DNA of 64,000 bases, from the IMG/VR virus record IMGVR_UViG_3300025687_000040. The stretch is one strand, 5' to 3'. Shown here in pieces: positions 2 through 60,476 of the stretch (within the stretch, counting starts at the first letter, position 1; each line of letters begins with the position of its first letter). A program made the position numbers and the translations under genes. The notes below the pieces were generated by a model. The model was given only the letters and a program-made list of their open reading frames with translations. It was not told the DNA's origin and made no database searches. Source of the DNA: a virus.

Positions 2-337
2 AAATTACGTTTAGGTAATCTAGATGCAAGTCGAGATTGGGGTCATGCAAAAGACTATGCTGAGGGAATGCATACTATTTTACAGCAAGAAAATCCTGAC
101 GATTTTGTACTATGTACTGGTGAAACCAGAACTATTAGGGAATTCCTAACAGTAGCTTTTAAGCATATAGATATTGATGATTGGGAACCCTTTGTAGTTA
201 CTGACCCGGAATTCTACCGTCCGGCAGAAGTGGATTACTTGAGAGGATCATGTAAAAAAGCACAAGAAATCTTTGGATGGGCACCATCCTATAGTTTTGA
301 AGAACTTGTAAAGGAAATGGTTGAGTATGAATTATAA
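2..337 (+). CDS. gmd: GDP-mannose 4,6-dehydratase, C-terminal fragment (5' end lies outside the window)
   Basis: Translation from nt 2 reads KLRLGNLDASRDWGHAKDYAEGMHTILQQENPDDFVLCTGETRTIREF, which matches the conserved C-terminal region of bacterial Gmd. The ORF-track start at 68 is an internal Met. Confidence 0.8.
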   Translation, partial: KLRLGNLDASRDWGHAKDYAEGMHTILQQENPDDFVLCTGETRTIREFLTVAFKHIDIDDWEPFVVTDPEFYRPAEVDYLRGSCKKAQEIFGWAPSYSFEELVKEMVEYEL

Positions 338-785
338 TACATTGTTGTTTACTTTTGTTGTACTTGGTTTTACGATTATTCTCTTTATCTTATTTAAAAT
401 TTTAATAGATAACTTAAAAAGAGAGCAATCTACTAATCAAAAACTCAGGAGAGAGATTTCCGAGATAAAATCCAAGTTAAAATCAACAGAAGTAAGAACA
501 GGGCAGATAGCGGAACAATTTGCTCCGTACCTAGATGGGTTTCCATATGATCCGAAAGATGTACGATTTCTAGGTTCTCCTATTGATATGGTTGTTTTTG
601 ATTTTAAAGGTGACCAGATTGTTCTAATAGAATTTAAGACGGGGGAATCAAGAGAAACTGATCGTCAAAAAAAAATTAGACAAATGATTGAGAACGGTAG
701 GTGTATATATCAAGTAATCCGGGTAAAAGATCAACTATCAATAAAAACAACCAATCCTAATACAGGCTCTTATAGTTACGAATAA
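321..785 (+). CDS. Hjc-like (archaeal-type) Holliday junction resolvase with an N-terminal transmembrane helix
   Basis: Hydrophobic N-terminus LLFTFVVLGFTIILFILF. The core GSPIDMVVFDFKGDQIVLIEFKTGES resembles the Hjc PD-(D/E)xK motif (PD...EVK). Confidence 0.45.
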   Translation: MSMNYNTLLFTFVVLGFTIILFILFKILIDNLKREQSTNQKLRREISEIKSKLKSTEVRTGQIAEQFAPYLDGFPYDPKDVRFLGSPIDMVVFDFKGDQIVLIEFKTGESRETDRQKKIRQMIENGRCIYQVIRVKDQLSIKTTNPNTGSYSYE

Positions 786-931
786 TTTGTAGAATAATCT
801 ATAAAGATATTATGTTCATACTTTGAATTAAAAATTAATGAAGGCATAAACAATGACATATTATATGAATCTGTTGATCTTCTTAGTTTTACATAACAAT
901 CAAAATATATTACTAGACTAAGATTGGTCAT

Positions 932-1210
932 TTGAGAATGGTTAGAAGACATTATGACTGCCCTATTTATAAAGACGCTAGGTTAAAAACCTTAAAGAGG
1001 GATAAACGAACGTGCCAAATGCCAGGATGCAAGAGCCGTAAAAAATTACATGTCCATCATATTGAACGTTGGTCTGATGCCTCTTGGCTAAGATATGAAG
1101 TATTTAATCTAATTACTCTTTGTAAAGAGTGTCATGAATCAATTAATGGAAAAGAAGCCCATTATGTAGGACTATTCAAACAAATCATTGCCAAAAATGA
1201 AAAAAAATGA
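932..1210 (+). CDS. HNH endonuclease
   Basis: HVHHIERWSDAS...NLITLCKECHESI is a canonical HNH motif with flanking Cys pairs (CQMPGC ... CKEC). Confidence 0.8.
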   Translation: MRMVRRHYDCPIYKDARLKTLKRDKRTCQMPGCKSRKKLHVHHIERWSDASWLRYEVFNLITLCKECHESINGKEAHYVGLFKQIIAKNEKK

Positions 1211-1701
1211 CTATAAATATATTGATAGATACTCGTGAGCAAAAGCCTTTCTTTGAGGTAGCACCATACTTGTCTACCGGAGAGTATATGAAGACAGAGT
1301 TCCGGAAACTAGACGCGGGAGATTACTCGATAGAAGGCATGGAGCATATTCTAGCTATTGAGAGAAAGTCAACTAGTGGTGAGCTATATGGTAACTTAGC
1401 GAAGACATCGATGAAAGAGCGTTTTTATAGAGAGCTTGATAAGCTCTCAAAGATTCAGAAAGCAATCATATTGTGTGAATTTCCGGAGTCCCATATCTTT
1501 AGTTTTCCTAATGACTCCGGAATTCCAGAATGTAAAAAGAAATATATAAGAGGTGGTTCCGGGTTTTTCCGGAAATTAATTCATGAGGTTATGGATAATT
1601 ACGACATTGAATTTGTGTATTGTGAGAACAAGATAGAAGCTGAAAAATATGCGGCACAATTAATTAGGGATACATGGGTAGAACATAATTCTAAGGAATG
1701 A
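1207..1701 (+). CDS. ERCC4-type (XPF/Mus81/Hef-like) nuclease
   Basis: IDTREQ...GDYSIEG...AIERKSTSGELYGNL matches the ERCC4 signature (VDxRE ... GDY ... ERKxxxDL). Confidence 0.6.
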   Translation: MTINILIDTREQKPFFEVAPYLSTGEYMKTEFRKLDAGDYSIEGMEHILAIERKSTSGELYGNLAKTSMKERFYRELDKLSKIQKAIILCEFPESHIFSFPNDSGIPECKKKYIRGGSGFFRKLIHEVMDNYDIEFVYCENKIEAEKYAAQLIRDTWVEHNSKE

Positions 1702-1813: not shown

Positions 1814-2254
1814 ATGCACACATCCCTTCTTCTTTTACCAGGTCGTTACTGGTATATCCCTTTTTTCTCAACTTACTATCTATTACCTGTTGTCAGACAG
1901 TCTCTGTATACGCTTGAACAAGACTTAATGACGTTAGATGGTAAACCACTCAAACTAAGGTCTGTGGTGTCTTACGAGGTCGATGACGTTATGACAGCGA
2001 TAGCTAAAGCCTACGAAGTAACAGACCAGATTGACGATGAAACTATGGGTCTAATCTGTCGTTATGTAGCTAGAAAAGAATTAAAAGAGTTAATGGATGA
2101 CCGGACAAAAATGAATAGGGAAATCACAGGTTTGGTTCATCGAAGAATGCAAGAATATGGAATTAGTGTTAAAAGAGTGCAAATTACATCTTTTATTTCC
2201 GGGTATTCAATACTCCATACCGGAATTGATATAAATCTAGGTGAACCTAAATGA
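1814..2254 (+). CDS. SPFH/band-7 (HflC-like) domain protein, apparently N-terminally truncated
   Basis: TLDGKPLKLRSVVSYEVDDVMTAIAKAYEVTDQ matches the SPFH core. The expected N-terminal TM and beta region is absent, and an in-frame TAA lies upstream at 1739. Confidence 0.45.
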   Translation: MHTSLLLLPGRYWYIPFFSTYYLLPVVRQSLYTLEQDLMTLDGKPLKLRSVVSYEVDDVMTAIAKAYEVTDQIDDETMGLICRYVARKELKELMDDRTKMNREITGLVHRRMQEYGISVKRVQITSFISGYSILHTGIDINLGEPK

Positions 2255-5200
2255 CTGAACGCTTAAGAGTAGAAATATTATCCGAACTTAATGATGCTTG
2301 GCTTAATATTAATTATAATAAAAATGAGTTATGTAAGCCTTTCGATTTACTCACTACAGACGATCCAGAGGAATTTTACAAGACGTTTACCTGGCTAATG
2401 ATACAGCCTGAGTACTTCTGTTTTCTCTGTAAGAACATATTGAATATAGACCTTGTCCCTTTTCAAGGACTTATGCTTGAGGAAATCTGGAAGCGAAAGT
2501 TTCCCATGCTGATTGGTAGTCGTGGGGTAGGAAAAACGTTTCTACTATCCCTTTATTCATTGATGAGGGCATTAATCATGCCCGAAAGAAAAGTCGTTGT
2601 GGTAGGGTCTGCGTTCCGCCAGTCTAAGTTCTTACATGACTATATGGAGACGATTTGGAAAAGGTCGCCCATATTAAGAGACTTATGCGATTCTAACAGT
2701 GGTCCACGTCGTGATGTAGATATGTGCCGGATGATTATCAATAGTAGTCAGGTAACAGCTCTGCCTATTGGAGATGGATGCGTAAGTCCTTTTACATTAA
2801 CTACTTACAATAATTCTATTGGAAATATTATTGAAGGAGATAGTTATTCTAATGTTTGGGGAAATGGTAAATTTCGTGATATTGAGTATTCAATAGATAA
2901 TGGCGTCAAACCCACCAAGATTATCACTACAAAACGGGGTTATTCGTATGAAGGCACCTATAATCACGCAATGAAAGTTCTTCGTAATGGTTCTGTTGAT
3001 TGGGTTAGAACTGACAATATGCAAAAAGGAGATCGTATTTTAATCGATAGATCTCAAAGGTGGCATGAGGGAGATATTAATTGTAGTTTGGATCAAGCCT
3101 ATGCTCTAGGAGCAATGATCGGTGATGGTTGTTGGACAGATCCTTATGGTTTGAGTTTTGCGACTAAAGATAAAGAGATTATTGATAGAATAGACAACCT
3201 TATCCCTCAAATAGTTGCTAGACCAAATAAGAATGAAATCCTCTATAAGCCTTGGAAGATGTCAAAAGATGAAGTACATTGGAAGATCAGCTCTAAACCT
3301 TTAAGAAATAAATTTTTAGGATATTGGGGCTTAGATAAATGTTATGCTATAGATAAATGTCTACCTAGAACTATTTTGGAAGGCTCTAAGCGGCACATGT
3401 CTGAATGTCTTGCTGGATTATATGACACAGACGGTCACGTTTTTATAGACACTTCTCGTGGCGGAACCACAATCTCTGTCAATTTTACAAATACAAGTAA
3501 GAGACTTGTAGAACAAATTCAGTATATACTTCTGCATTACGGCATCGTTTCAACATTAACATATAGAGATCGTGACAAAAAATGGAACCGTGTTTATGAA
3601 TTAGGGATATATGGTAGAAATGTCAAATTATTTGCTGATCAGATTAACTTCCGTTTATCTAGAAAAAGAGACAGTCTTAATGCCGCTATTTCCCAAAAGA
3701 AACGCTGGAATAGCTTTGATGATACCGTTCCTGTGACTCAAGAGCAGGTTCTAACAGCTTTGGAAGGAGCTAGATATAAAGAATGCCTGTCTACATCTAA
3801 GGTCAAAAGTAGAAAAACTTTTCAAATTAATTTCTTACAAAAGGTCTTAGACCATATTGATCATATTCCCGATTGGGCAGAACTGGTAAATCCTGATATA
3901 TTCTATGATGAAGTATATTCTATAGAAGACTCGGAATGCCATACCTGTGATATACATGTTCCAGAAGGAAACGAATATTGTGCAAATGGGTTTTTTAGTC
4001 ATAACAGCAAGATTCGTGGTCAGCGTGCCAATGATATCATTGCAGACGAATTTGCTTCACAGTCCCGTGACATATTCGAAAACGTTATTGCCGGTTTTGG
4101 TGCCGTTTCCTCATCACCGTCCGAAGGCGTCAAATTAGCCGCAGCTAAGAATCTTGCAAAACAAAGAGGATATGACCCTTCTCTTTTACAAGAAAACTTT
4201 GCCAATGAAGACTTTGGTAACCAGATTGTTTTATCAGGAACAGCTTATTATGACTTTAATCATTTCTCAACATATTGGAAACGATGGCGTTCAATTATAA
4301 ACTCTAAGGGCGATCCTGTCAAGCTTAAAGAGACTTTTGGCGAAGAAAAAGTGCCGGATAGTTTCAACTGGAAAGATTATTCAGTTATTAGAATGCCTTT
4401 TGAGTTAATTCCTAAAGGATTTATGGATGACGCTCAAGTAGCCCGTTCTAAGGCTACCGTACATAACGGCATTTATCTGATGGAATTTAGTGCTGTTTTC
4501 TGTACAGATAGTGCAGGATTCTTTAAGAGAAGTTTGATTGAAGCATGTACGGGTTCTGAGCAAAAACCAATCAAGTTACCTTCTGGCGACTTATACTTTG
4601 ACCCCTCACTAAAGGGGCAAATTGATAAGCAATATATTATTGGTGTAGACCCTGCATCTGAAGTCGATAATTTTTCGATTGTTGTATTAGAAGTAAACTC
4701 AGATCATAGAAGAATAGCTCATGTTTGGACTACTACAAGAAAAGAGTATAATGAGAGATTAAAACGCGGATTAACAGAAGAAGGGGACTTCTACGCATAT
4801 TGTGCCAGACGTATTCGTGATCTAATGGGGGCTTTTCCAACTATTCATATCGCAATGGATGCTCAAGGTGGCGGAATTGCTGTAGCTGAAGCTTTACATG
4901 ATCCTGTTAGGCTTCTACCAGGAGAACTTCCTATTTGGCCTGTTATCGATGAAGACAAGGAAAAAGATACTGACGACGAACAGGGTCTTCATATATTAGA
5001 ATTATGCCAGTTTGCGAAATATGACTGGCTCTCTGAGGCTAATCATGGTCTAAGAAAAGATCTGGAAGATAAAGTTCTTCTATTCCCCAGATTTGATCCT
5101 ATTACAATTGGATTGTCTATTGAACAGGATAAAGCCAGTAACAGAACTTATGATACTTTGGAAGATTGTGTGATGGAAATTGAGGCATTGAAGGATGAAC

Positions 5201-5478
5201 TGTGTCTTATAGAAATTCGTCAGACTCCTACAGGTAGAGATCAGTGGAATACACCAGAAGTTAAGACAGGTGTGGGCAAGAAAGATAGACTGAGAAAAGA
5301 CCGATATTCAGCACTTTTAATGGCTAATATGGCTGCTCGACAAACTCGTAACGCCCGCATTCAAGACTCTTATGAAATTTATGGAGGCTTTGCTTCCGTG
5401 CCAGATAGTAATAAAAAAAGCGAGGCTATTTTTCTTGGTCCTAACTGGTATACAGAAAAAATGAATGGGGTTTATTAA
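2251..5478 (+). CDS. terL: Terminase large subunit interrupted by an intein
   Basis: Walker A GSRGVGKT lies before the insertion and Walker B-like IIADEFA after it. A nuclease-domain-like GVDPASEVDNFSIVVLEV sits C-terminally. The gene is placed upstream of the portal gene. Confidence 0.85.
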   Translation: MTERLRVEILSELNDAWLNINYNKNELCKPFDLLTTDDPEEFYKTFTWLMIQPEYFCFLCKNILNIDLVPFQGLMLEEIWKRKFPMLIGSRGVGKTFLLSLYSLMRALIMPERKVVVVGSAFRQSKFLHDYMETIWKRSPILRDLCDSNSGPRRDVDMCRMIINSSQVTALPIGDGCVSPFTLTTYNNSIGNIIEGDSYSNVWGNGKFRDIEYSIDNGVKPTKIITTKRGYSYEGTYNHAMKVLRNGSVDWVRTDNMQKGDRILIDRSQRWHEGDINCSLDQAYALGAMIGDGCWTDPYGLSFATKDKEIIDRIDNLIPQIVARPNKNEILYKPWKMSKDEVHWKISSKPLRNKFLGYWGLDKCYAIDKCLPRTILEGSKRHMSECLAGLYDTDGHVFIDTSRGGTTISVNFTNTSKRLVEQIQYILLHYGIVSTLTYRDRDKKWNRVYELGIYGRNVKLFADQINFRLSRKRDSLNAAISQKKRWNSFDDTVPVTQEQVLTALEGARYKECLSTSKVKSRKTFQINFLQKVLDHIDHIPDWAELVNPDIFYDEVYSIEDSECHTCDIHVPEGNEYCANGFFSHNSKIRGQRANDIIADEFASQSRDIFENVIAGFGAVSSSPSEGVKLAAAKNLAKQRGYDPSLLQENFANEDFGNQIVLSGTAYYDFNHFSTYWKRWRSIINSKGDPVKLKETFGEEKVPDSFNWKDYSVIRMPFELIPKGFMDDAQVARSKATVHNGIYLMEFSAVFCTDSAGFFKRSLIEACTGSEQKPIKLPSGDLYFDPSLKGQIDKQYIIGVDPASEVDNFSIVVLEVNSDHRRIAHVWTTTRKEYNERLKRGLTEEGDFYAYCARRIRDLMGAFPTIHIAMDAQGGGIAVAEALHDPVRLLPGELPIWPVIDEDKEKDTDDEQGLHILELCQFAKYDWLSEANHGLRKDLEDKVLLFPRFDPITIGLSIEQDKASNRTYDTLEDCVMEIEALKDELCLIEIRQTPTGRDQWNTPEVKTGVGKKDRLRKDRYSALLMANMAARQTRNARIQDSYEIYGGFASVPDSNKKSEAIFLGPNWYTEKMNGVY
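2779..4005 (+). mobile_element. Full intein (409 aa) with a LAGLIDADG homing endonuclease inside terL
   Basis: It starts with Cys (IGDG|CVSPF) and ends ...FFSHN followed by Ser +1. Two LAGLIDADG motifs are present, LGAMIGDGC and LAGLYDTDGHV. The extein frame is continuous. Confidence 0.85.
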
Positions 5479-10505: not shown

Positions 10506-10522
10506 GATATTTTGGCTATAAT

Positions 10523-10556
10523 AGAGAGGCGGGTTTTGGCCCGCCTCTCTTTTTTT
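10523..10556 (+). terminator. Rho-independent terminator after the capsid gene
   Basis: GAGAGGCGGGTTTTGGCCCGCCTCTC forms a hairpin followed by TTTTTTTATT. Confidence 0.75.
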
Positions 10557-10586
10557 ATTGAAAATAGTCTCTTTAGGAATCACAGA

Positions 10587-12197
10587 ATGTTTTTAAACGA
10601 ACAAACTAAATCAAAATTTGGATATGAAGTCAAAAACCTAAGTAAGTTCTCTCGTAAAAAAATATTAGCCCTCTGTGATTACTGTGAGAATACCTATGAA
10701 ACAACAATGAAAATATATAGTACTGGTAGAGATAAATTACCAAAAGACTGTTGTAAAAAATGTCGTGATAAAAAGAGGGAAGAGATATCTATACAGAAAC
10801 ATGGGGTGTCTAATCCATTCCAAAGAAAAGACATTAAAGATAAAATAAAAGAAACTAATTTGGAAAAATATGGAGCTGAACATCCTATGATGAATAAAAG
10901 CGTCCAGAATAGATCTAAAGAAACCTGCTTAAAAAAATACGGAGTAGAGTTTGCTGTACAATCTCAAGAAGTACAGAGTAAATATAAAGAAACTTGTATG
11001 AAAAGATATGGTGTAGAGAACGTATCTTCTGTTGATGAATTCAAAGAAAAAAGGAAAAACACTAACAAAAAATTATATGGTCATGAATACTATTTAGCTT
11101 CAGAATCATGTAAAAAATTATCAAAAGAAAAGTTTGGAGTTGATAACGTTTTCCAATTAGAAGAAGTTAGAAAGAAATCAAGACAAACCTGTCTAGATAG
11201 ATATGGAAAAGAATACTATATGCAGGTGCCGGAACATGCCTGTACTATCAATGCTAAGTCCATAAAAACAAAAACAGAAATGGGGCAGATAGAAACTCAT
11301 AAGGGCATGAACAAGACAGAATGGTCTCAAAGGATAGGTATTTCTAGAAGTTACTTTGCGACATTAGCAAATCAGCATGGATGGGACTATGCTATTAATT
11401 ACAAAAAGAGTATGACTAACATCGAAACCTTAATTTTTAATCTATTAAAAGAGAAAGGAATAGATTTTGAGTACAATAAAAAATTAGATAGATTTTACCC
11501 TGACTTTGTAATTCCGGAATTTAGTTTAATTATTGAAACGGACGGGTTATTTTGGCACTCAGATAAAATTCAACAGGATGACAGATATCATATAAATAAA
11601 AAAGACGCTTATGAAGCACTTGGTTATAAGTCCCTTTTCTTTTTAGAAGACGAGTTATTGAATAAATTTGAAATTGTTGAATCTATTATCAATAACAAAC
11701 TATCAATCAGCGATACTATTTATGCTAGGAAACTAAAAATTGGAAAAATGGGTGCTTCATTATCAAAAATGTTTTTTGAAGATAACCATTTAATGGGAAA
11801 AGGTCAGGGGCTAACATATACACTACATAATGATAAAATCGTTTATTGTGCTATGAGAGTCAGAAGAAAAAAAGATAATAATTGGGAAATTAGTAGATTC
11901 TGCCCAAAGAAGGGGTATTCTATTCCTGGGGGGTTCTCTAGACTATTAAAATCTTTTGAACTAGAGCACAATCCAGATAGTGTTACGACATTTATTGATA
12001 AAAGATACGGATCTGGAGAATATTTGTCTGATTTAGGATTTTCTTGTCAATCATGTTACAAAAGTTTTAAGTGGACAGACAATCAGTCTACCTATCACCG
12101 TATGAAATTCCCCTCAAATACTGGATATGAACACGGTATGAACAAGATTTGGGATTGTGGTCAGGCCAAATGGGTAAAAACCTATAATAAGGTGTAA
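10587..12197 (+). CDS. Homing-endonuclease-like protein with N-terminal tandem KYG repeats and a Vsr/DUF559-type PD-(D/E)xK core
   Basis: Five ~32-aa repeats (...LEKYGAEHP.., ..LKKYGVEFAVQSQEVQSKYKETCMKRYGVENV.., ..KKLYGHEY.., ..KEKFGVDNV.., ..LDRYGKEY). FYPDFVIPEFSLIIETDGLFWHSD matches the DUF559/Vsr iEiDG..wH motif. The track start 10512 is a TTG inside the terminator, so the ATG at 10587 is more plausible. Confidence 0.5.
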   Translation: MFLNEQTKSKFGYEVKNLSKFSRKKILALCDYCENTYETTMKIYSTGRDKLPKDCCKKCRDKKREEISIQKHGVSNPFQRKDIKDKIKETNLEKYGAEHPMMNKSVQNRSKETCLKKYGVEFAVQSQEVQSKYKETCMKRYGVENVSSVDEFKEKRKNTNKKLYGHEYYLASESCKKLSKEKFGVDNVFQLEEVRKKSRQTCLDRYGKEYYMQVPEHACTINAKSIKTKTEMGQIETHKGMNKTEWSQRIGISRSYFATLANQHGWDYAINYKKSMTNIETLIFNLLKEKGIDFEYNKKLDRFYPDFVIPEFSLIIETDGLFWHSDKIQQDDRYHINKKDAYEALGYKSLFFLEDELLNKFEIVESIINNKLSISDTIYARKLKIGKMGASLSKMFFEDNHLMGKGQGLTYTLHNDKIVYCAMRVRRKKDNNWEISRFCPKKGYSIPGGFSRLLKSFELEHNPDSVTTFIDKRYGSGEYLSDLGFSCQSCYKSFKWTDNQSTYHRMKFPSNTGYEHGMNKIWDCGQAKWVKTYNKV

Positions 12198-57177: not shown

Positions 57178-57413
57178 TTAATAGCTTCATCGAAGTTATA
57201 AAAGTCCTTAATGAATTCCTTTCCATTCAAATTGGACTTATATACTTGAAGTTTCGGAGATGTCTCATTTCTATATTTTTTCATAAAAAAACGTAGATCA
57301 CTAATCTCTGCATCCCCTTTTTTCACTATACAGCCATCTAAAAGAATTTTTTTATAACAATCTGATTCTTTTAACAGTCCAACTTCTAAGTATTCCGCAA
57401 ATGTTTCGCTCAT
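57141..57413 (-). CDS. Hypothetical protein
   Basis: Called from the ORF. Confidence 0.25.
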   Translation of the reverse strand: MSETFAEYLEVGLLKESDCYKKILLDGCIVKKGDAEISDLRFFMKKYRNETSPKLQVYKSNLNGKEFIKDFYNFDEAINCFRSLIKGVVA

Positions 57414-58525
57414 ATTTGAATAATCTCACTCACAATAAAGGAATCTCTATCTTTAGCCTTTTCGCCAAACAGGAGTACAGTGGCCGCTTCATAGATTATA
57501 TCCCCGTATTCTTCATAAATGTCAGGGAAAACAACAACATTCTCTAATTCCATAGATTCGTCCCTTACTGTGAGAAAAGCCATTAAAGTTTCATTTTTTG
57601 TTTTATGCTCATTATATTTTACTATTTCTACAGCCAATATGCTGCGTCCTAATTTGCCATCCGCAATATCTTTACAGCGAGCGTTGGCACTGGACGCATC
57701 ACGACATGCGTCTGTCTTTGAATATGTAAGAGGTACGCCTAAAAGATTTTCTTCAGCTAAACAGATTGTTAATGGTGTATCTTTTAAATCTCGCCCAGGA
57801 TTATCTAACCTATCAATGATACTATTAAATACAACTTGTCTCTTCTCACTTGAAATCGCACCGCCATTCTTTTTTAGTTGATTAATTTTTAGAAGGTTTT
57901 GCTTTAATGATAACTCAGAATCATATGTCTCAGTCAGCTTCTCTAACTCTTTTGCTGTTAACTCTTTAATACAAGAATATTCATGAAGCATTTCAGATCG
58001 ACTTTTCTTATATTTAGAAAACATTCCAACTGAAATTAGATTATTTACCGAACGCTTGTTTACTTTCGATAATACACGAACTAGAATAGACATCCAATTT
58101 TGCGTCACTTCCTGGCCTTGTTCTTTTATCAGCCTATCCATTTTTCTGAATTCATTCTGCCCCACATTCTTTACATTGGTAACCCCAAAATAAATAGCAC
58201 TATTTTGAATCGAATAGGTCTCATTCATATATTCAATAGATGGAATTCTTATCGGGATATTATCAAGTTTAGCACTTTCTACTAATTCATATGTCTCACG
58301 GTCAGAATCCATTTTCTCCTTAGCGTTTACCAGCCAGTTGAGATAGAAGCTTAATGGATGGTTTGCTTTTAAGTAAGCTGACCAATAGGCCATGTAAGCA
58401 TAACTTACTGCATGAGAATTAGATGTAGGTATTCCATTAGCGTAAAAAATATGATCTTTTGAATCTATTTCAATATCTATAGTATTTTCACGACCTAGAT
58501 ACTCAATTTCATATATAGATGACAT
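57410..58525 (-). CDS. dnaE: DNA polymerase III alpha (DnaE) C-terminal half preceded by a split-intein C fragment (DnaE-c)
   Basis: The N-terminal 36 aa MSSIYEIEYLGRENTIDIEIDSKDHIFYANGIPTSN align to DnaE split-intein IntC (compare Npu MIKIATRKYLGKQNVYDIGVERDHNFALKNGFIASN). The extein SHAVSYAYMAYWSAYLKANHP matches the DnaE KSHSAAYA...YLKAHYP region. An OB-fold-like segment (LAVEIVKYNEHKTKNETLMAFLTVRDESMELENVVVFPDIYEEY) follows. Confidence 0.8.
   Translation of the reverse strand: MSSIYEIEYLGRENTIDIEIDSKDHIFYANGIPTSNSHAVSYAYMAYWSAYLKANHPLSFYLNWLVNAKEKMDSDRETYELVESAKLDNIPIRIPSIEYMNETYSIQNSAIYFGVTNVKNVGQNEFRKMDRLIKEQGQEVTQNWMSILVRVLSKVNKRSVNNLISVGMFSKYKKSRSEMLHEYSCIKELTAKELEKLTETYDSELSLKQNLLKINQLKKNGGAISSEKRQVVFNSIIDRLDNPGRDLKDTPLTICLAEENLLGVPLTYSKTDACRDASSANARCKDIADGKLGRSILAVEIVKYNEHKTKNETLMAFLTVRDESMELENVVVFPDIYEEYGDIIYEAATVLLFGEKAKDRDSFIVSEIIQI
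58418..58525 (-). mobile_element. Split-intein C-terminal fragment (IntC, 36 aa) at the 5' end of dnaE-c
   Basis: It carries intein block F and G-like motifs and ends in Asn followed by Ser +1. The penultimate Ser matches known DnaE IntC. Confidence 0.75.
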
Positions 58526-58544: not shown

Positions 58545-59100
58545 TGAATAGGAAGGTCTAAATCATATAATCTCTCCAATCGCAAGCGTAACTGCGATTG
58601 TAACTGAGAGGGCATATAGGAGTATAACTTAGATCTTAACCGCCAGTCTAATTCAGAGTCTAAACATAAGCATAACGACGGATATAACTGCCAGTGAAAA
58701 TAAATGTATAAATGCGATTCTAACTGCCGACTATTCACTACCTTTCTCCAACTGCGAGTTTAGCTGCGAGTTTAGCTGCAAGTATAACTGCCAGTGTAAC
58801 TGCCAGTGTAACTGCGAGCTTAAATGCAAGTATAACTTTAAGTCTAACTGCGAGTGAAACTGCGAGTATAACTGCGAGTGAAACTGCGAGTTTAAGTGCG
58901 AGCTATTCACTATCTCTATCCAACTGCGAGTATAACTGCGAGTGTAACTGCGAGTATAACCGCCGGTATAACTGCGAGTGTAACTGCGAGTGTAACTGCG
59001 AGTTCAACTGCCAGAGTAACTGCCAGTATAACTGCGAGTGTAACTGCAAGACTAACTGTTCGCGTAACTGTAAGCTATTCATTAGTCCTGCCCCACTGAT
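58545..59100. repeat. Tandem array of three blocks (~172 bp each) of 13 units of 12 bp (consensus TAACTGCGAGTG)
   Basis: Three successive blocks each contain 13 units of 12 bp. Each is preceded by a ~16-nt punctuation such as ATTCACTATCTCTATCC. The left block is the most degenerate and the right block the best conserved. The ORFs reported inside read periodic artefacts such as (TASV)n and (SQLH)n. Confidence 0.85.
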
Positions 59101-59777: not shown

Positions 59778-60476
59778 ATGCAGGTTGGCGATAAAATTGG
59801 AAAATTAGAAGTTTTAGAATTACGAGTCAAAAAACGTAATAATGGGGTCTATTATCATCTATGCCGCTGTGATTGTGGAAATAAGAAGGCTATGAAGGAG
59901 TACAACATTAAAAACAGCAAGGGGTGTGGATGTGGTGCTAAGGAAAAAACGGCGGGCATAGAAAATGGACAGACGTATGGAAAATGGACTGTGATTCGAG
60001 AATATTCTCGTAAGTCGTCTAAAAATAGGAATTGGTATCATTTGTGTCAATGCGAATGTGGTAACCATCAACACGTTCTTGGCGGTAACCTAAAAATGGG
60101 AAAATCAAACCAATGTATGAAATGTTCTGTAGAGTCTGAAGACACTTTACAGAATAAAATTTTTAGAGCCTATAAAAGCAGTGCAAAAGACAGAGGGCAT
60201 AGTTTTGATTTAGATTTGACCTATTTTTTGAAGGAGATAGATAAACCATGTCATTATTGTGGGGCTAAAAATTCTCGGACCACTTCAACTTATCATAAAG
60301 ACGAATCAAAAAGAAGGCATCTATTGTCTAATGGTTTAGATAGGGTAGATAATAATATAGGATATACTGAAGAAAACTGCGTCCCTTGCTGTACTACTTG
60401 TAACAGTATGAAAATGTGTTTGGGAAAAGATGAATTCTTGACCCATATTCAAAAGATCTATGATTTTAATCATTAA
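59778..60476 (+). CDS. HNH endonuclease (homing-type) with duplicated N-terminal Zn-binding modules
   Basis: Duplicated VYYHLCRCDCGN and NWYHLCQCECGN. The C-terminal NGLDRVDNNIGYTEENCVPCCTTCN is an HNH-like core. Confidence 0.6.
   Translation: MQVGDKIGKLEVLELRVKKRNNGVYYHLCRCDCGNKKAMKEYNIKNSKGCGCGAKEKTAGIENGQTYGKWTVIREYSRKSSKNRNWYHLCQCECGNHQHVLGGNLKMGKSNQCMKCSVESEDTLQNKIFRAYKSSAKDRGHSFDLDLTYFLKEIDKPCHYCGAKNSRTTSTYHKDESKRRHLLSNGLDRVDNNIGYTEENCVPCCTTCNSMKMCLGKDEFLTHIQKIYDFNH

Follow-up and report, generated by a model that had tools for sequence, protein, structure and literature searches.

The gene for the large terminase subunit (terL) of an uncultured marine phage, represented by the IMG/VR record IMGVR_UViG_3300025687_000040, very probably carries a canonical class 1 intein with an embedded two-motif LAGLIDADG homing endonuclease, lying in frame within the part that encodes the ATPase domain. 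The whole stretch of 64,000 nucleotides (nt) that was analysed is referred to here as the window, and all positions are given in its numbering. The precursor open reading frame (ORF), located at 2251..5478 on the plus strand (stop included), encodes 1075 amino acids (aa) and is composed of an N-extein (2251..2778, residues 1-176, ending in ...ALPIGDG), the 409-aa intein (2779..4005, 1227 nt) and a C-extein of 490 aa (4006..5478), all on the same strand. The intein begins with Cys and ends with His-Asn, followed by Ser as the first residue of the C-extein (+1 Ser, AGC, 4006-4008), exactly as the original prediction, made from the sequence alone, had proposed. The element is not new in kind, TerL inteins with LAGLIDADG endonucleases being well documented; here such an element is found in an uncultured marine lineage.

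The element is exactly excisable. Deletion of 2779..4005 produces a protein of 666 aa, and this spliced sequence was searched against about 5.8 billion proteins. The search returned intein-free homologues of exactly 666 aa with 92% (P0004, Tara/ENA) and 89% (P0006-P0008) identity, and dozens more at 64-76% identity; their residues 1-176 are collinear with the N-extein, and they are uninterrupted across the junction, with a seamless join of the PIGDG|SKIRG type (...ALPIGDG|SKIRGQRANDII.DEFA...). Since these homologues read straight across the junction, the 409 aa are an insertion and not a native domain of TerL. Among the 120 closest homologues, 109 have no large insertion, four are interrupted at the same site, from GDG|C[VI]S to SHN|S, six inside Walker A and one at ...MEFGA|C. 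The exact precursor protein is also present in public metagenome collections (P0293), where JGI, Logan and ENA assemblies have it on a contig of 65 kb. The identity of the +1 residue is informative as well: in the same set of 120, it is Gln in 80, Ser in 35 and Glu in one of the empty copies of the site, and always Ser in the occupied ones, matching the splicing chemistry, and Ser or Thr is found at +1 in every intein-bearing relative. At the DNA level, the empty site reads …GGAGATGGA|TCTAAGATTCGTGGT… in the related contig L001 (Ser allele) and …GGTGATGGT|CAAAAGATTCGTGGA… in L004 (Gln allele). As the Gln allele would be unable to support splicing if invaded, it may act as an intein-resistant (“immune”) allele.

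All of the canonical intein blocks are present, as revealed by an alignment with eleven inteins from the same position of other TerLs (hereafter site b; 39-88% identity to the intein of the window), and blocks A, B, C, E, D, H, F and G are all found at their expected places. Block A (2779..2808, CVSPFTLTTY) opens with the nucleophile Cys1 (TGC, 2779-2781, codon 177 of the precursor), and block B (2953..2982, GTYNHAMKVL) contains the T-x-x-H signature as T60-Y-N-H63; both Cys1 and this signature are kept in all of the aligned site-b inteins. The two LAGLIDADG motifs that had been predicted, LGAMIGDGC and LAGLYDTDGHV, are located at intein residues 108-118 (block C, 3100..3132, YALGAMIGDGC) and 210-221 (block E, 3406..3441, CLAGLYDTDGHV, with the core ...AGLYDTDGHV), respectively; each retains its acidic Asp (...MIGDG and ...YDTDG), and the first is aligned to the GDG of PI-PfuI. 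Block D is KCLPRTIL, and block H (NTSKRLVEQIQYILLHYGIVS) is the most conserved stretch of the intein. The C-terminal splicing region (blocks F and G, 3898..4005, ...HTCDIHVPEGNEYCANGFFSHN) comprises block F, ...HTCDIHVPEGNEYCANG, which includes ...HTCDIHV... and whose Asp is conserved in the family alignment, and block G, FFSHN, in which His408-Asn409 are encoded by CAT AAC at 4000-4005. The G+C content of the intein (35.3%) is slightly below that of the exteins (39.4-39.6%).

In class 3 inteins (WCT type) the N-terminal nucleophile is lacking, and a Trp in block B, a Cys at position 4 of block F and a Thr at position 5 of block G are found instead. This status is ruled out for the intein of the window by Cys1, by the Asp of block F and by the Ser that precedes His-Asn. 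A Cys is nevertheless found in block F (3940..3948, HTCDIH), at a position where the other aligned site-b inteins that cover it have Tyr or Phe; the site-b intein of another family member, P0134, has a Cys at the same position. A redox role for this residue is speculative.

Domain and fold comparisons point in the same direction. Two Pfam models match the 409-aa segment, LAGLIDADG_3 with E=3.8e-19 and Intein_splicing at 37.6 bits, above its cut-off of 35.8. Searched by sequence against the PDB, the intein matches PI-PfuI (1DQ3, E=1.7e-4), with both LAGLIDADG motifs superposed, and, in a second match, the C-terminal splicing region of 6RPQ. An AlphaFold model built on a 12-sequence alignment reached a mean predicted local distance difference test score (pLDDT) of 77 and a predicted template modelling score (pTM) of 0.78, and the best PDB matches found with it by Foldseek are all inteins or LAGLIDADG enzymes: TliVMA (7QSS, E=2.7e-15), PI-PfuI (1DQ3, 8.7e-14), PI-TkoII (2CW7, 6.6e-10) and PI-SceI (1VDE, about 1e-7), with the free-standing enzymes I-Tsp061I and I-DmoI among the further matches. 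The model and these matches indicate a Hint fold and, for the endonuclease, two LAGLIDADG helices in the alpha-beta-beta-alpha-beta-beta-alpha fold of the monomeric two-motif enzymes, and the Pfam scores together with the Foldseek E of 2.7e-15 place the identification as an intein far beyond chance. Its nearest relatives outside its own 90% cluster show 37-48% aa identity and are all inserted at the same site in diverged TerLs, and the next intein match after these site-b inteins is a RecA intein, at 27%. Furthermore, in a comparison with the nearest intein-bearing relative (L002), the ratio of nonsynonymous to synonymous substitution rates (dN/dS) amounts to 0.12 over the intein as a whole and to 0.14 over its endonuclease domain, compared with 0.05-0.06 in the exteins. 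The values of 0.12 and 0.14 indicate that the intein is under purifying selection and is not decaying. Taken together, the sequence features are those of a bona fide class 1 LAGLIDADG intein, which is probably active.

The host protein is identified as TerL by its Walker A and Walker B motifs and by its homology to known terminases: in tblastn searches the extein matches terminases annotated in Bacillus phages, with E=1e-33 and 86% of the length aligned. No terminase of a cultured phage exceeds about 26% identity to it, and the TerL of MaeS, a phage related to the Microcystis cyanophage Mic1, is a distant homologue (23.5% identity). Pfam Terminase_6N and Terminase_6C give only weak signals in the exteins, below their cut-offs, which marks the family as divergent; moreover, megablast of the gene found no match in 50,697 phage records, and the lineage is one without a cultured close relative. 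The Walker A motif, or P-loop (2515..2538, GSRGVGKT, residues 89-96), is intact in the window, and in relatives it is the site (K|T, site a) of a different intein. The original prediction had placed the insertion right after Walker A; in fact, the intein starts at residue 177, 81 residues past the Walker A Lys95. The +1 Ser belongs to the motif SKIRG (4006..4020), which also contains, three residues further on, R180 (spliced numbering), the probable trans-acting arginine finger, and it lies 13-14 residues before the Asp-Glu (D190, E191) of the Walker B strand DIIADE (4033..4050, spliced residues 186-191).

The assignment of R180 and of the Walker B strand is based on conservation and on profile alignments with terminases of solved structure. 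R180 is nearly invariant in the TerL family, and G181 and R183 are invariant. The spliced TerL found nothing among PDB sequences by phmmer or by hmmsearch with a shallow profile, its AlphaFold model, built on a shallow 37-sequence alignment, was unusable (pLDDT 49.5), and hhalign of the shallow profile with T4 gp17 aligned Walker A alone. A deeper profile made from 40 intein-free family members gave weak hmmsearch matches to the structures of T7 gp19 (E about 0.05), in which PiGdGekirGlRanliiadE is aligned to VGITGQLTGSRADIIIADD. By hhalign, this profile aligned with T4 gp17 (...SSPDAVRGNSFAMIYIDE...) at a probability of 10% and with TerL of Thermus phage P74-26 over 327 columns (E=4e-4, probability 35%); the latter alignment pairs R180 with R139, and D190/E191 with D149/E150. 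In P74-26, R139 is the biochemically confirmed trans-acting arginine finger, located between helix alpha-2 and strand beta-3, and an arginine is found there in T4 as well (PMC5727402). A position of the intein beside the arginine finger and Walker B is thus likely rather than proven. With an insertion at this point, the strand before it is cut off from the probable arginine finger and from Walker B. A precursor left unspliced should therefore lack ATPase function and form no working ATPase ring, and splicing should be obligatory for packaging; the same conclusion on the unspliced precursor was drawn for mycobacteriophage TerL inteins by Kelley et al. (PMC5050341).

From this anatomy we infer the following course of events. 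After translation of the 1075-aa precursor, an N-S acyl shift at Cys1 would generate a thioester, which would be attacked by the +1 Ser in a trans-esterification; cyclisation of Asn409, assisted by His408, would free the intein, and an O-N shift would then establish a native peptide bond, leaving the 666-aa TerL with PIGDG-SKIRG restored. During co-infection, the endonuclease of the freed intein would cut an intein-free terL in the DNA coding for PIGDG|SKIRG, and repair from the intein-bearing allele would copy the intein together with flanking extein sequence. The window itself is the apparent product of one such homing event.

The evidence for mobility comes from the comparison with the contigs of relatives, which were fetched and are designated L001-L006. 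The distribution of the inteins among them is patchy: L001 is intein-free; L002, which belongs to the backbone lineage of the window, and L003 carry the same site-b intein; in L004, site b is empty (Gln) and the P-loop holds an intein of 361 aa that starts with Ala; L005, from another lineage, has a site-b intein; and L006, from the same lineage as L005, has a P-loop intein. Presence or absence of the site-b intein differs among genomes that are 94-99% identical. The window and L004 are about 99% identical over 8 kb, with about 99% nt identity over the about 6.2 kb aligned around the intein region, and their spliced terL genes show 69 differences, of which 64 fall in spliced nt 276-552 and five in the remaining ~1.7 kb. 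The corresponding tract of the window (2526..4029, plus strand) is made of 253 nt of the N-extein, the 1227-nt intein and 24 nt of the C-extein; on the left it starts 9 nt ahead of the P-loop site (nt 285), and on the right it reaches 24 nt beyond the site-b junction (nt 528). Over most of this tract the exteins are 96-100% identical to the L005/L006 lineage (89% in a 90-nt stretch spanning the insertion site), and only 76-90% identical to their own backbone lineage; in L002, the flanks of the site-b intein stay of the backbone type. This pattern identifies the terL of the window as a recombinant, with the backbone of one lineage and the intein and its near flanks from another. The tract is the footprint that would be expected from the repair of an endonuclease-initiated double-strand break with co-conversion of the flanks. 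The intein is itself a mosaic: it shows 88% nt identity overall to that of L002, falling to 61-71% over intein nt 900-1020, where L002 resembles L005.

The P-loop intein of the relatives was observed in L004:3001-6084 and L006:3001-6084 as an element of ~361 aa inside Walker A (GVGK|A...VTHN|T), class 3-like when read by eye (...DHLW..., Cys in block F, Thr-His-Asn), at a position that is empty in the window (2536|2537, K95|T96). An Ala-initiated intein between K95 and T96 is also found in P0001, P0002 and P0005, and, read by eye, those of P0001 and P0002 are class 3-like too, with an Ala start, ...DHLW..., ...C-I-[TS]-V... and ...VTHN|T. The left end of the tract at the P-loop site fits a recipient that carried such an intein, because resection inside the 1083-nt heterology would resolve at its edge. 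On this basis we tentatively consider, as a possibility that still falls well short of probable, that a single gene-conversion event in a wild marine phage population swapped inteins in a near-isogenic ancestor with Gln at +1: in the repair of a double-strand break from a donor with the site-b intein, the class 3-like intein of the P-loop would have been deleted exactly and the site-b intein installed, with a tract extending leftward through the 243 nt between the two sites, in a TerL family that would be the arena of at least seven competing intein alleles, with up to four per gene. An intein-free recipient, or two separate events, could also account for the tract.

Several considerations have to be weighed against a mobile intein with an active endonuclease in the ATPase domain. 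Residues 1-43 of the intein are modelled at low confidence; the alignments with P74-26, T4 and T7 gp19 that map the site on known structures are each weak and agree only at the level of motifs; ordinary homologous recombination could also produce the recombinant tract; and the actual donor is not among the database sequences, the nearest intein, that of L002, being only 88% identical in nt. It could accordingly be argued that the intein splices with a dead endonuclease, as a fixed and decaying passenger passed on by vertical descent, and that the tract is due to ordinary phage recombination. The mosaic structure of the intein and the lack of an exact donor are compatible with this, and phage genomes recombine often anyway, the region upstream of terL being variable between the contigs too. 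However, both acidic residues of the LAGLIDADG motifs are kept, the endonuclease domain evolves with a dN/dS of 0.14, the intein comes and goes among nearly identical genomes, and 64 of the 69 differences lie together in one tract, which includes the intein and stops 24 nt past it, as expected of co-conversion during homing. We therefore regard a dead endonuclease as rather unlikely, albeit as the most serious of the competing explanations.

It might also be supposed that the phage has turned the intein into a conditional switch, such as a redox switch acting through cysteines, which would delay the maturation of the terminase to late infection or to favourable conditions. Splicing is probably needed for ATPase activity at a site adjoining the arginine finger and Walker B, a similar control has been proposed for both inteins carried by the TerL of Mic1 (PMC7156551) and for mycobacteriophage TerL inteins (PMC5050341), and the Cys of block F replaces the Tyr/Phe of the other aligned site-b inteins covering that position. 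Nonetheless, no intein is present in 109 of the 120 close relatives, the occurrence is sporadic and tied to recombination, as for a selfish element, and no sequence feature specifically points to regulation, all of which makes this role quite improbable. As for a lineage-specific native domain of TerL or a non-splicing insertion, it is effectively refuted by the intein-free homologues of exactly 666 aa, and is practically untenable given that all of the splicing blocks and both terminal nucleophiles are present, that the fold matches solved inteins and that the insertion splits a nearly invariant ATPase motif. The preferred reading thus remains that of a class 1 intein with a homing endonuclease that is predicted to be active.

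The insertion in the window is one of many in this protein family. When 1.84 billion cluster representatives were scanned by HMMER with P0004, which is intein-free, as the query, 1412 family members were identified; among the 150 best ones, 113 have one or more insertions longer than 100 aa. The cluster representatives are possibly biased to the longest member, and these proportions therefore overstate prevalence; inteins of any kind are present in only 11 of the 120 closest homologues. Junctions were refined in the best 150 representatives and are given here in spliced numbering. The most populated site is that of the P-loop, 95|96 (K|T), with 50 representatives, followed by 193|194 (DEFA|S, 23), 339|340 (EFxA|C, 22), the site of the window, 176|177 (GDG|S, 19), 174|175 (PIG|[TS]G, 11), 183-184 (after RGxRA, about four) and 188|189 (|CDEF, two). 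Low-scoring assignments (72, 88-93, 178, 323, 344) are probably misplaced main sites and were left uncounted, and 11 further long insertions are probably inteins in pairs with a short piece of extein between them. Five of the seven recurrent sites are found inside a 20-residue stretch at the arginine finger and Walker B. In P0134, a protein of 1948 aa, four inteins are present, at sites 95, 176, 193 and 339. The TerL family as a whole is thus a hot spot for inteins: no fewer than seven sites are used, and a single gene holds as many as four inteins.

Terminases are known as intein hosts in other phages. In mycobacteriophages TerL is the commonest intein host, accounting for about 40% of inteins, with seven sites that are all in the ATPase domain, and splicing and the cutting of intein-free alleles have been demonstrated for some of them (PMC5050341). 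A survey of actinobacteriophages from 2025 reported 293 TerL inteins among nearly 800 (bioRxiv 10.1101/2025.01.02.630785). Like these, the intein described here is located at or beside the catalytic motifs of the ATPase, has a LAGLIDADG endonuclease, as do many of them, and is patchily distributed; unlike them, it resides in an uncultured marine phage, and no close sequence relationship with them is detectable. The sites of Kelley et al. (TerL1-a to -e, TerL6-f and Pham3880-g) fall in the P-loop and in a helix of poor conservation, in Walker B and the C-motif, and at the end of the ATPase domain (PMC5050341). Compared by these published descriptions, the GDG|SKIRG site has no obvious equal among the seven, the nearest being TerL1-e (Walker B), and it may be distinct from the catalogued actinobacteriophage sites.

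A further precedent, also for multiple inteins in one TerL, is offered by the freshwater Microcystis cyanophage Mic1, whose TerL carries two inteins (PMC7156551). The two systems share an aquatic phage TerL with a large, endonuclease-containing intein in the ATPase domain, but the large intein of Mic1 has Thr at +1 and the second intein of this TerL lies in the nuclease domain, whereas the gene of the window has a single intein and Ser at +1. The archaeal inteins TliVMA, PI-PfuI and PI-TkoII and the yeast PI-SceI likewise have a Hint domain split by a two-motif LAGLIDADG endonuclease, with extra helical elements; however, these solved inteins are only 12-18% identical to that of the window and are hosted by V-ATPase, ribonucleotide reductase and DNA polymerase in other domains of life. 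Among cultured phages the closest inteins are those in the helicases of Twort-like phages of Staphylococcus, Enterococcus and Listeria (26-28% identity over about 90% of the length), which share the class 1 and LAGLIDADG layout but interrupt a DNA helicase and are not the same allele.

These results have some practical consequences. The true TerL is the spliced product of 666 aa, and gene callers and family models will assign a wrong size to it. With its position three residues ahead of the probable arginine finger, the site is one more case of the rule by which the most conserved catalytic motifs are the targets of inteins. The most interesting material is, in our opinion, the population-level picture rather than the single intein: near-identical wild genomes with alternative inteins, a sharp conversion tract and a family with multiple sites form an uncultured, ocean-wide data set on the dynamics of intein invasion. 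If the family is indeed such an arena of competing inteins, intein homing, displacement and “immune” alleles would become directly measurable in metagenomes.

Other candidate selfish elements in the window had also been listed in the original prediction, which spoke of heavy selfish-element traffic; this view is supported, and more strongly, by the recombinant tract and by the family-wide occurrence of inteins at multiple sites. The HNH endonuclease gene at 932..1210 was confirmed (Pfam, E=8.9e-8). It lies in a slot (786..1210) that is variable among the contigs, between a Holliday-junction-resolvase-like gene (321..785) and an ERCC4-like gene (1207..1701): the window, L004 and L005 have an HNH gene in the slot, L002 and L003 have another ORF, of 125 aa, and L001 has both HNH and a methyltransferase. 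For the second gene proposed as HNH (59778..60476) Pfam gives no match, and only a Cys-rich, HNH-like ending can be recognised by eye. Vsr-like homing-endonuclease genes had been named as well; at 10512..12197, just after the capsid-region genes, an ORF encodes 561 aa with DUF7487 (E=1e-42) and a Vsr/DUF559 endonuclease-like domain. Its product may be a homing-type nuclease of the free-standing sort that has entered the structural module. The putative capsid protein had no match by tblastn.

A DnaE with a split intein had been proposed as well, and one half of it is visible. The ORF at 57410..58525 on the minus strand begins with 36 aa resembling the C-terminal part of a split intein (IntC-like; MSSIYEIEYLGRENTIDIEIDSKDHIFYANGIPTSN|SHAVSYAY..., ending in ...ANGIPTSN|SHAVSYAY), followed, with Ser at +1, by the C-terminal part of DnaE (HHH_6). 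This start supports a split-intein DnaE; no N-terminal half turned up when the large ORFs of the window were searched for it. Immediately upstream of terL, and overlapping it, a 146-aa SPFH/Band 7 protein is encoded at 1814..2254, where the small terminase subunit (TerS) would be expected, and no recognisable TerS was found. Finally, between the gene for the C-terminal half of DnaE and the next gene, a 12-nt unit (AACTGCGAGTGT) is repeated in tandem at 58750..59058, in about 25 copies with 75% matches, and this array gives rise to repetitive ORFs on both strands.

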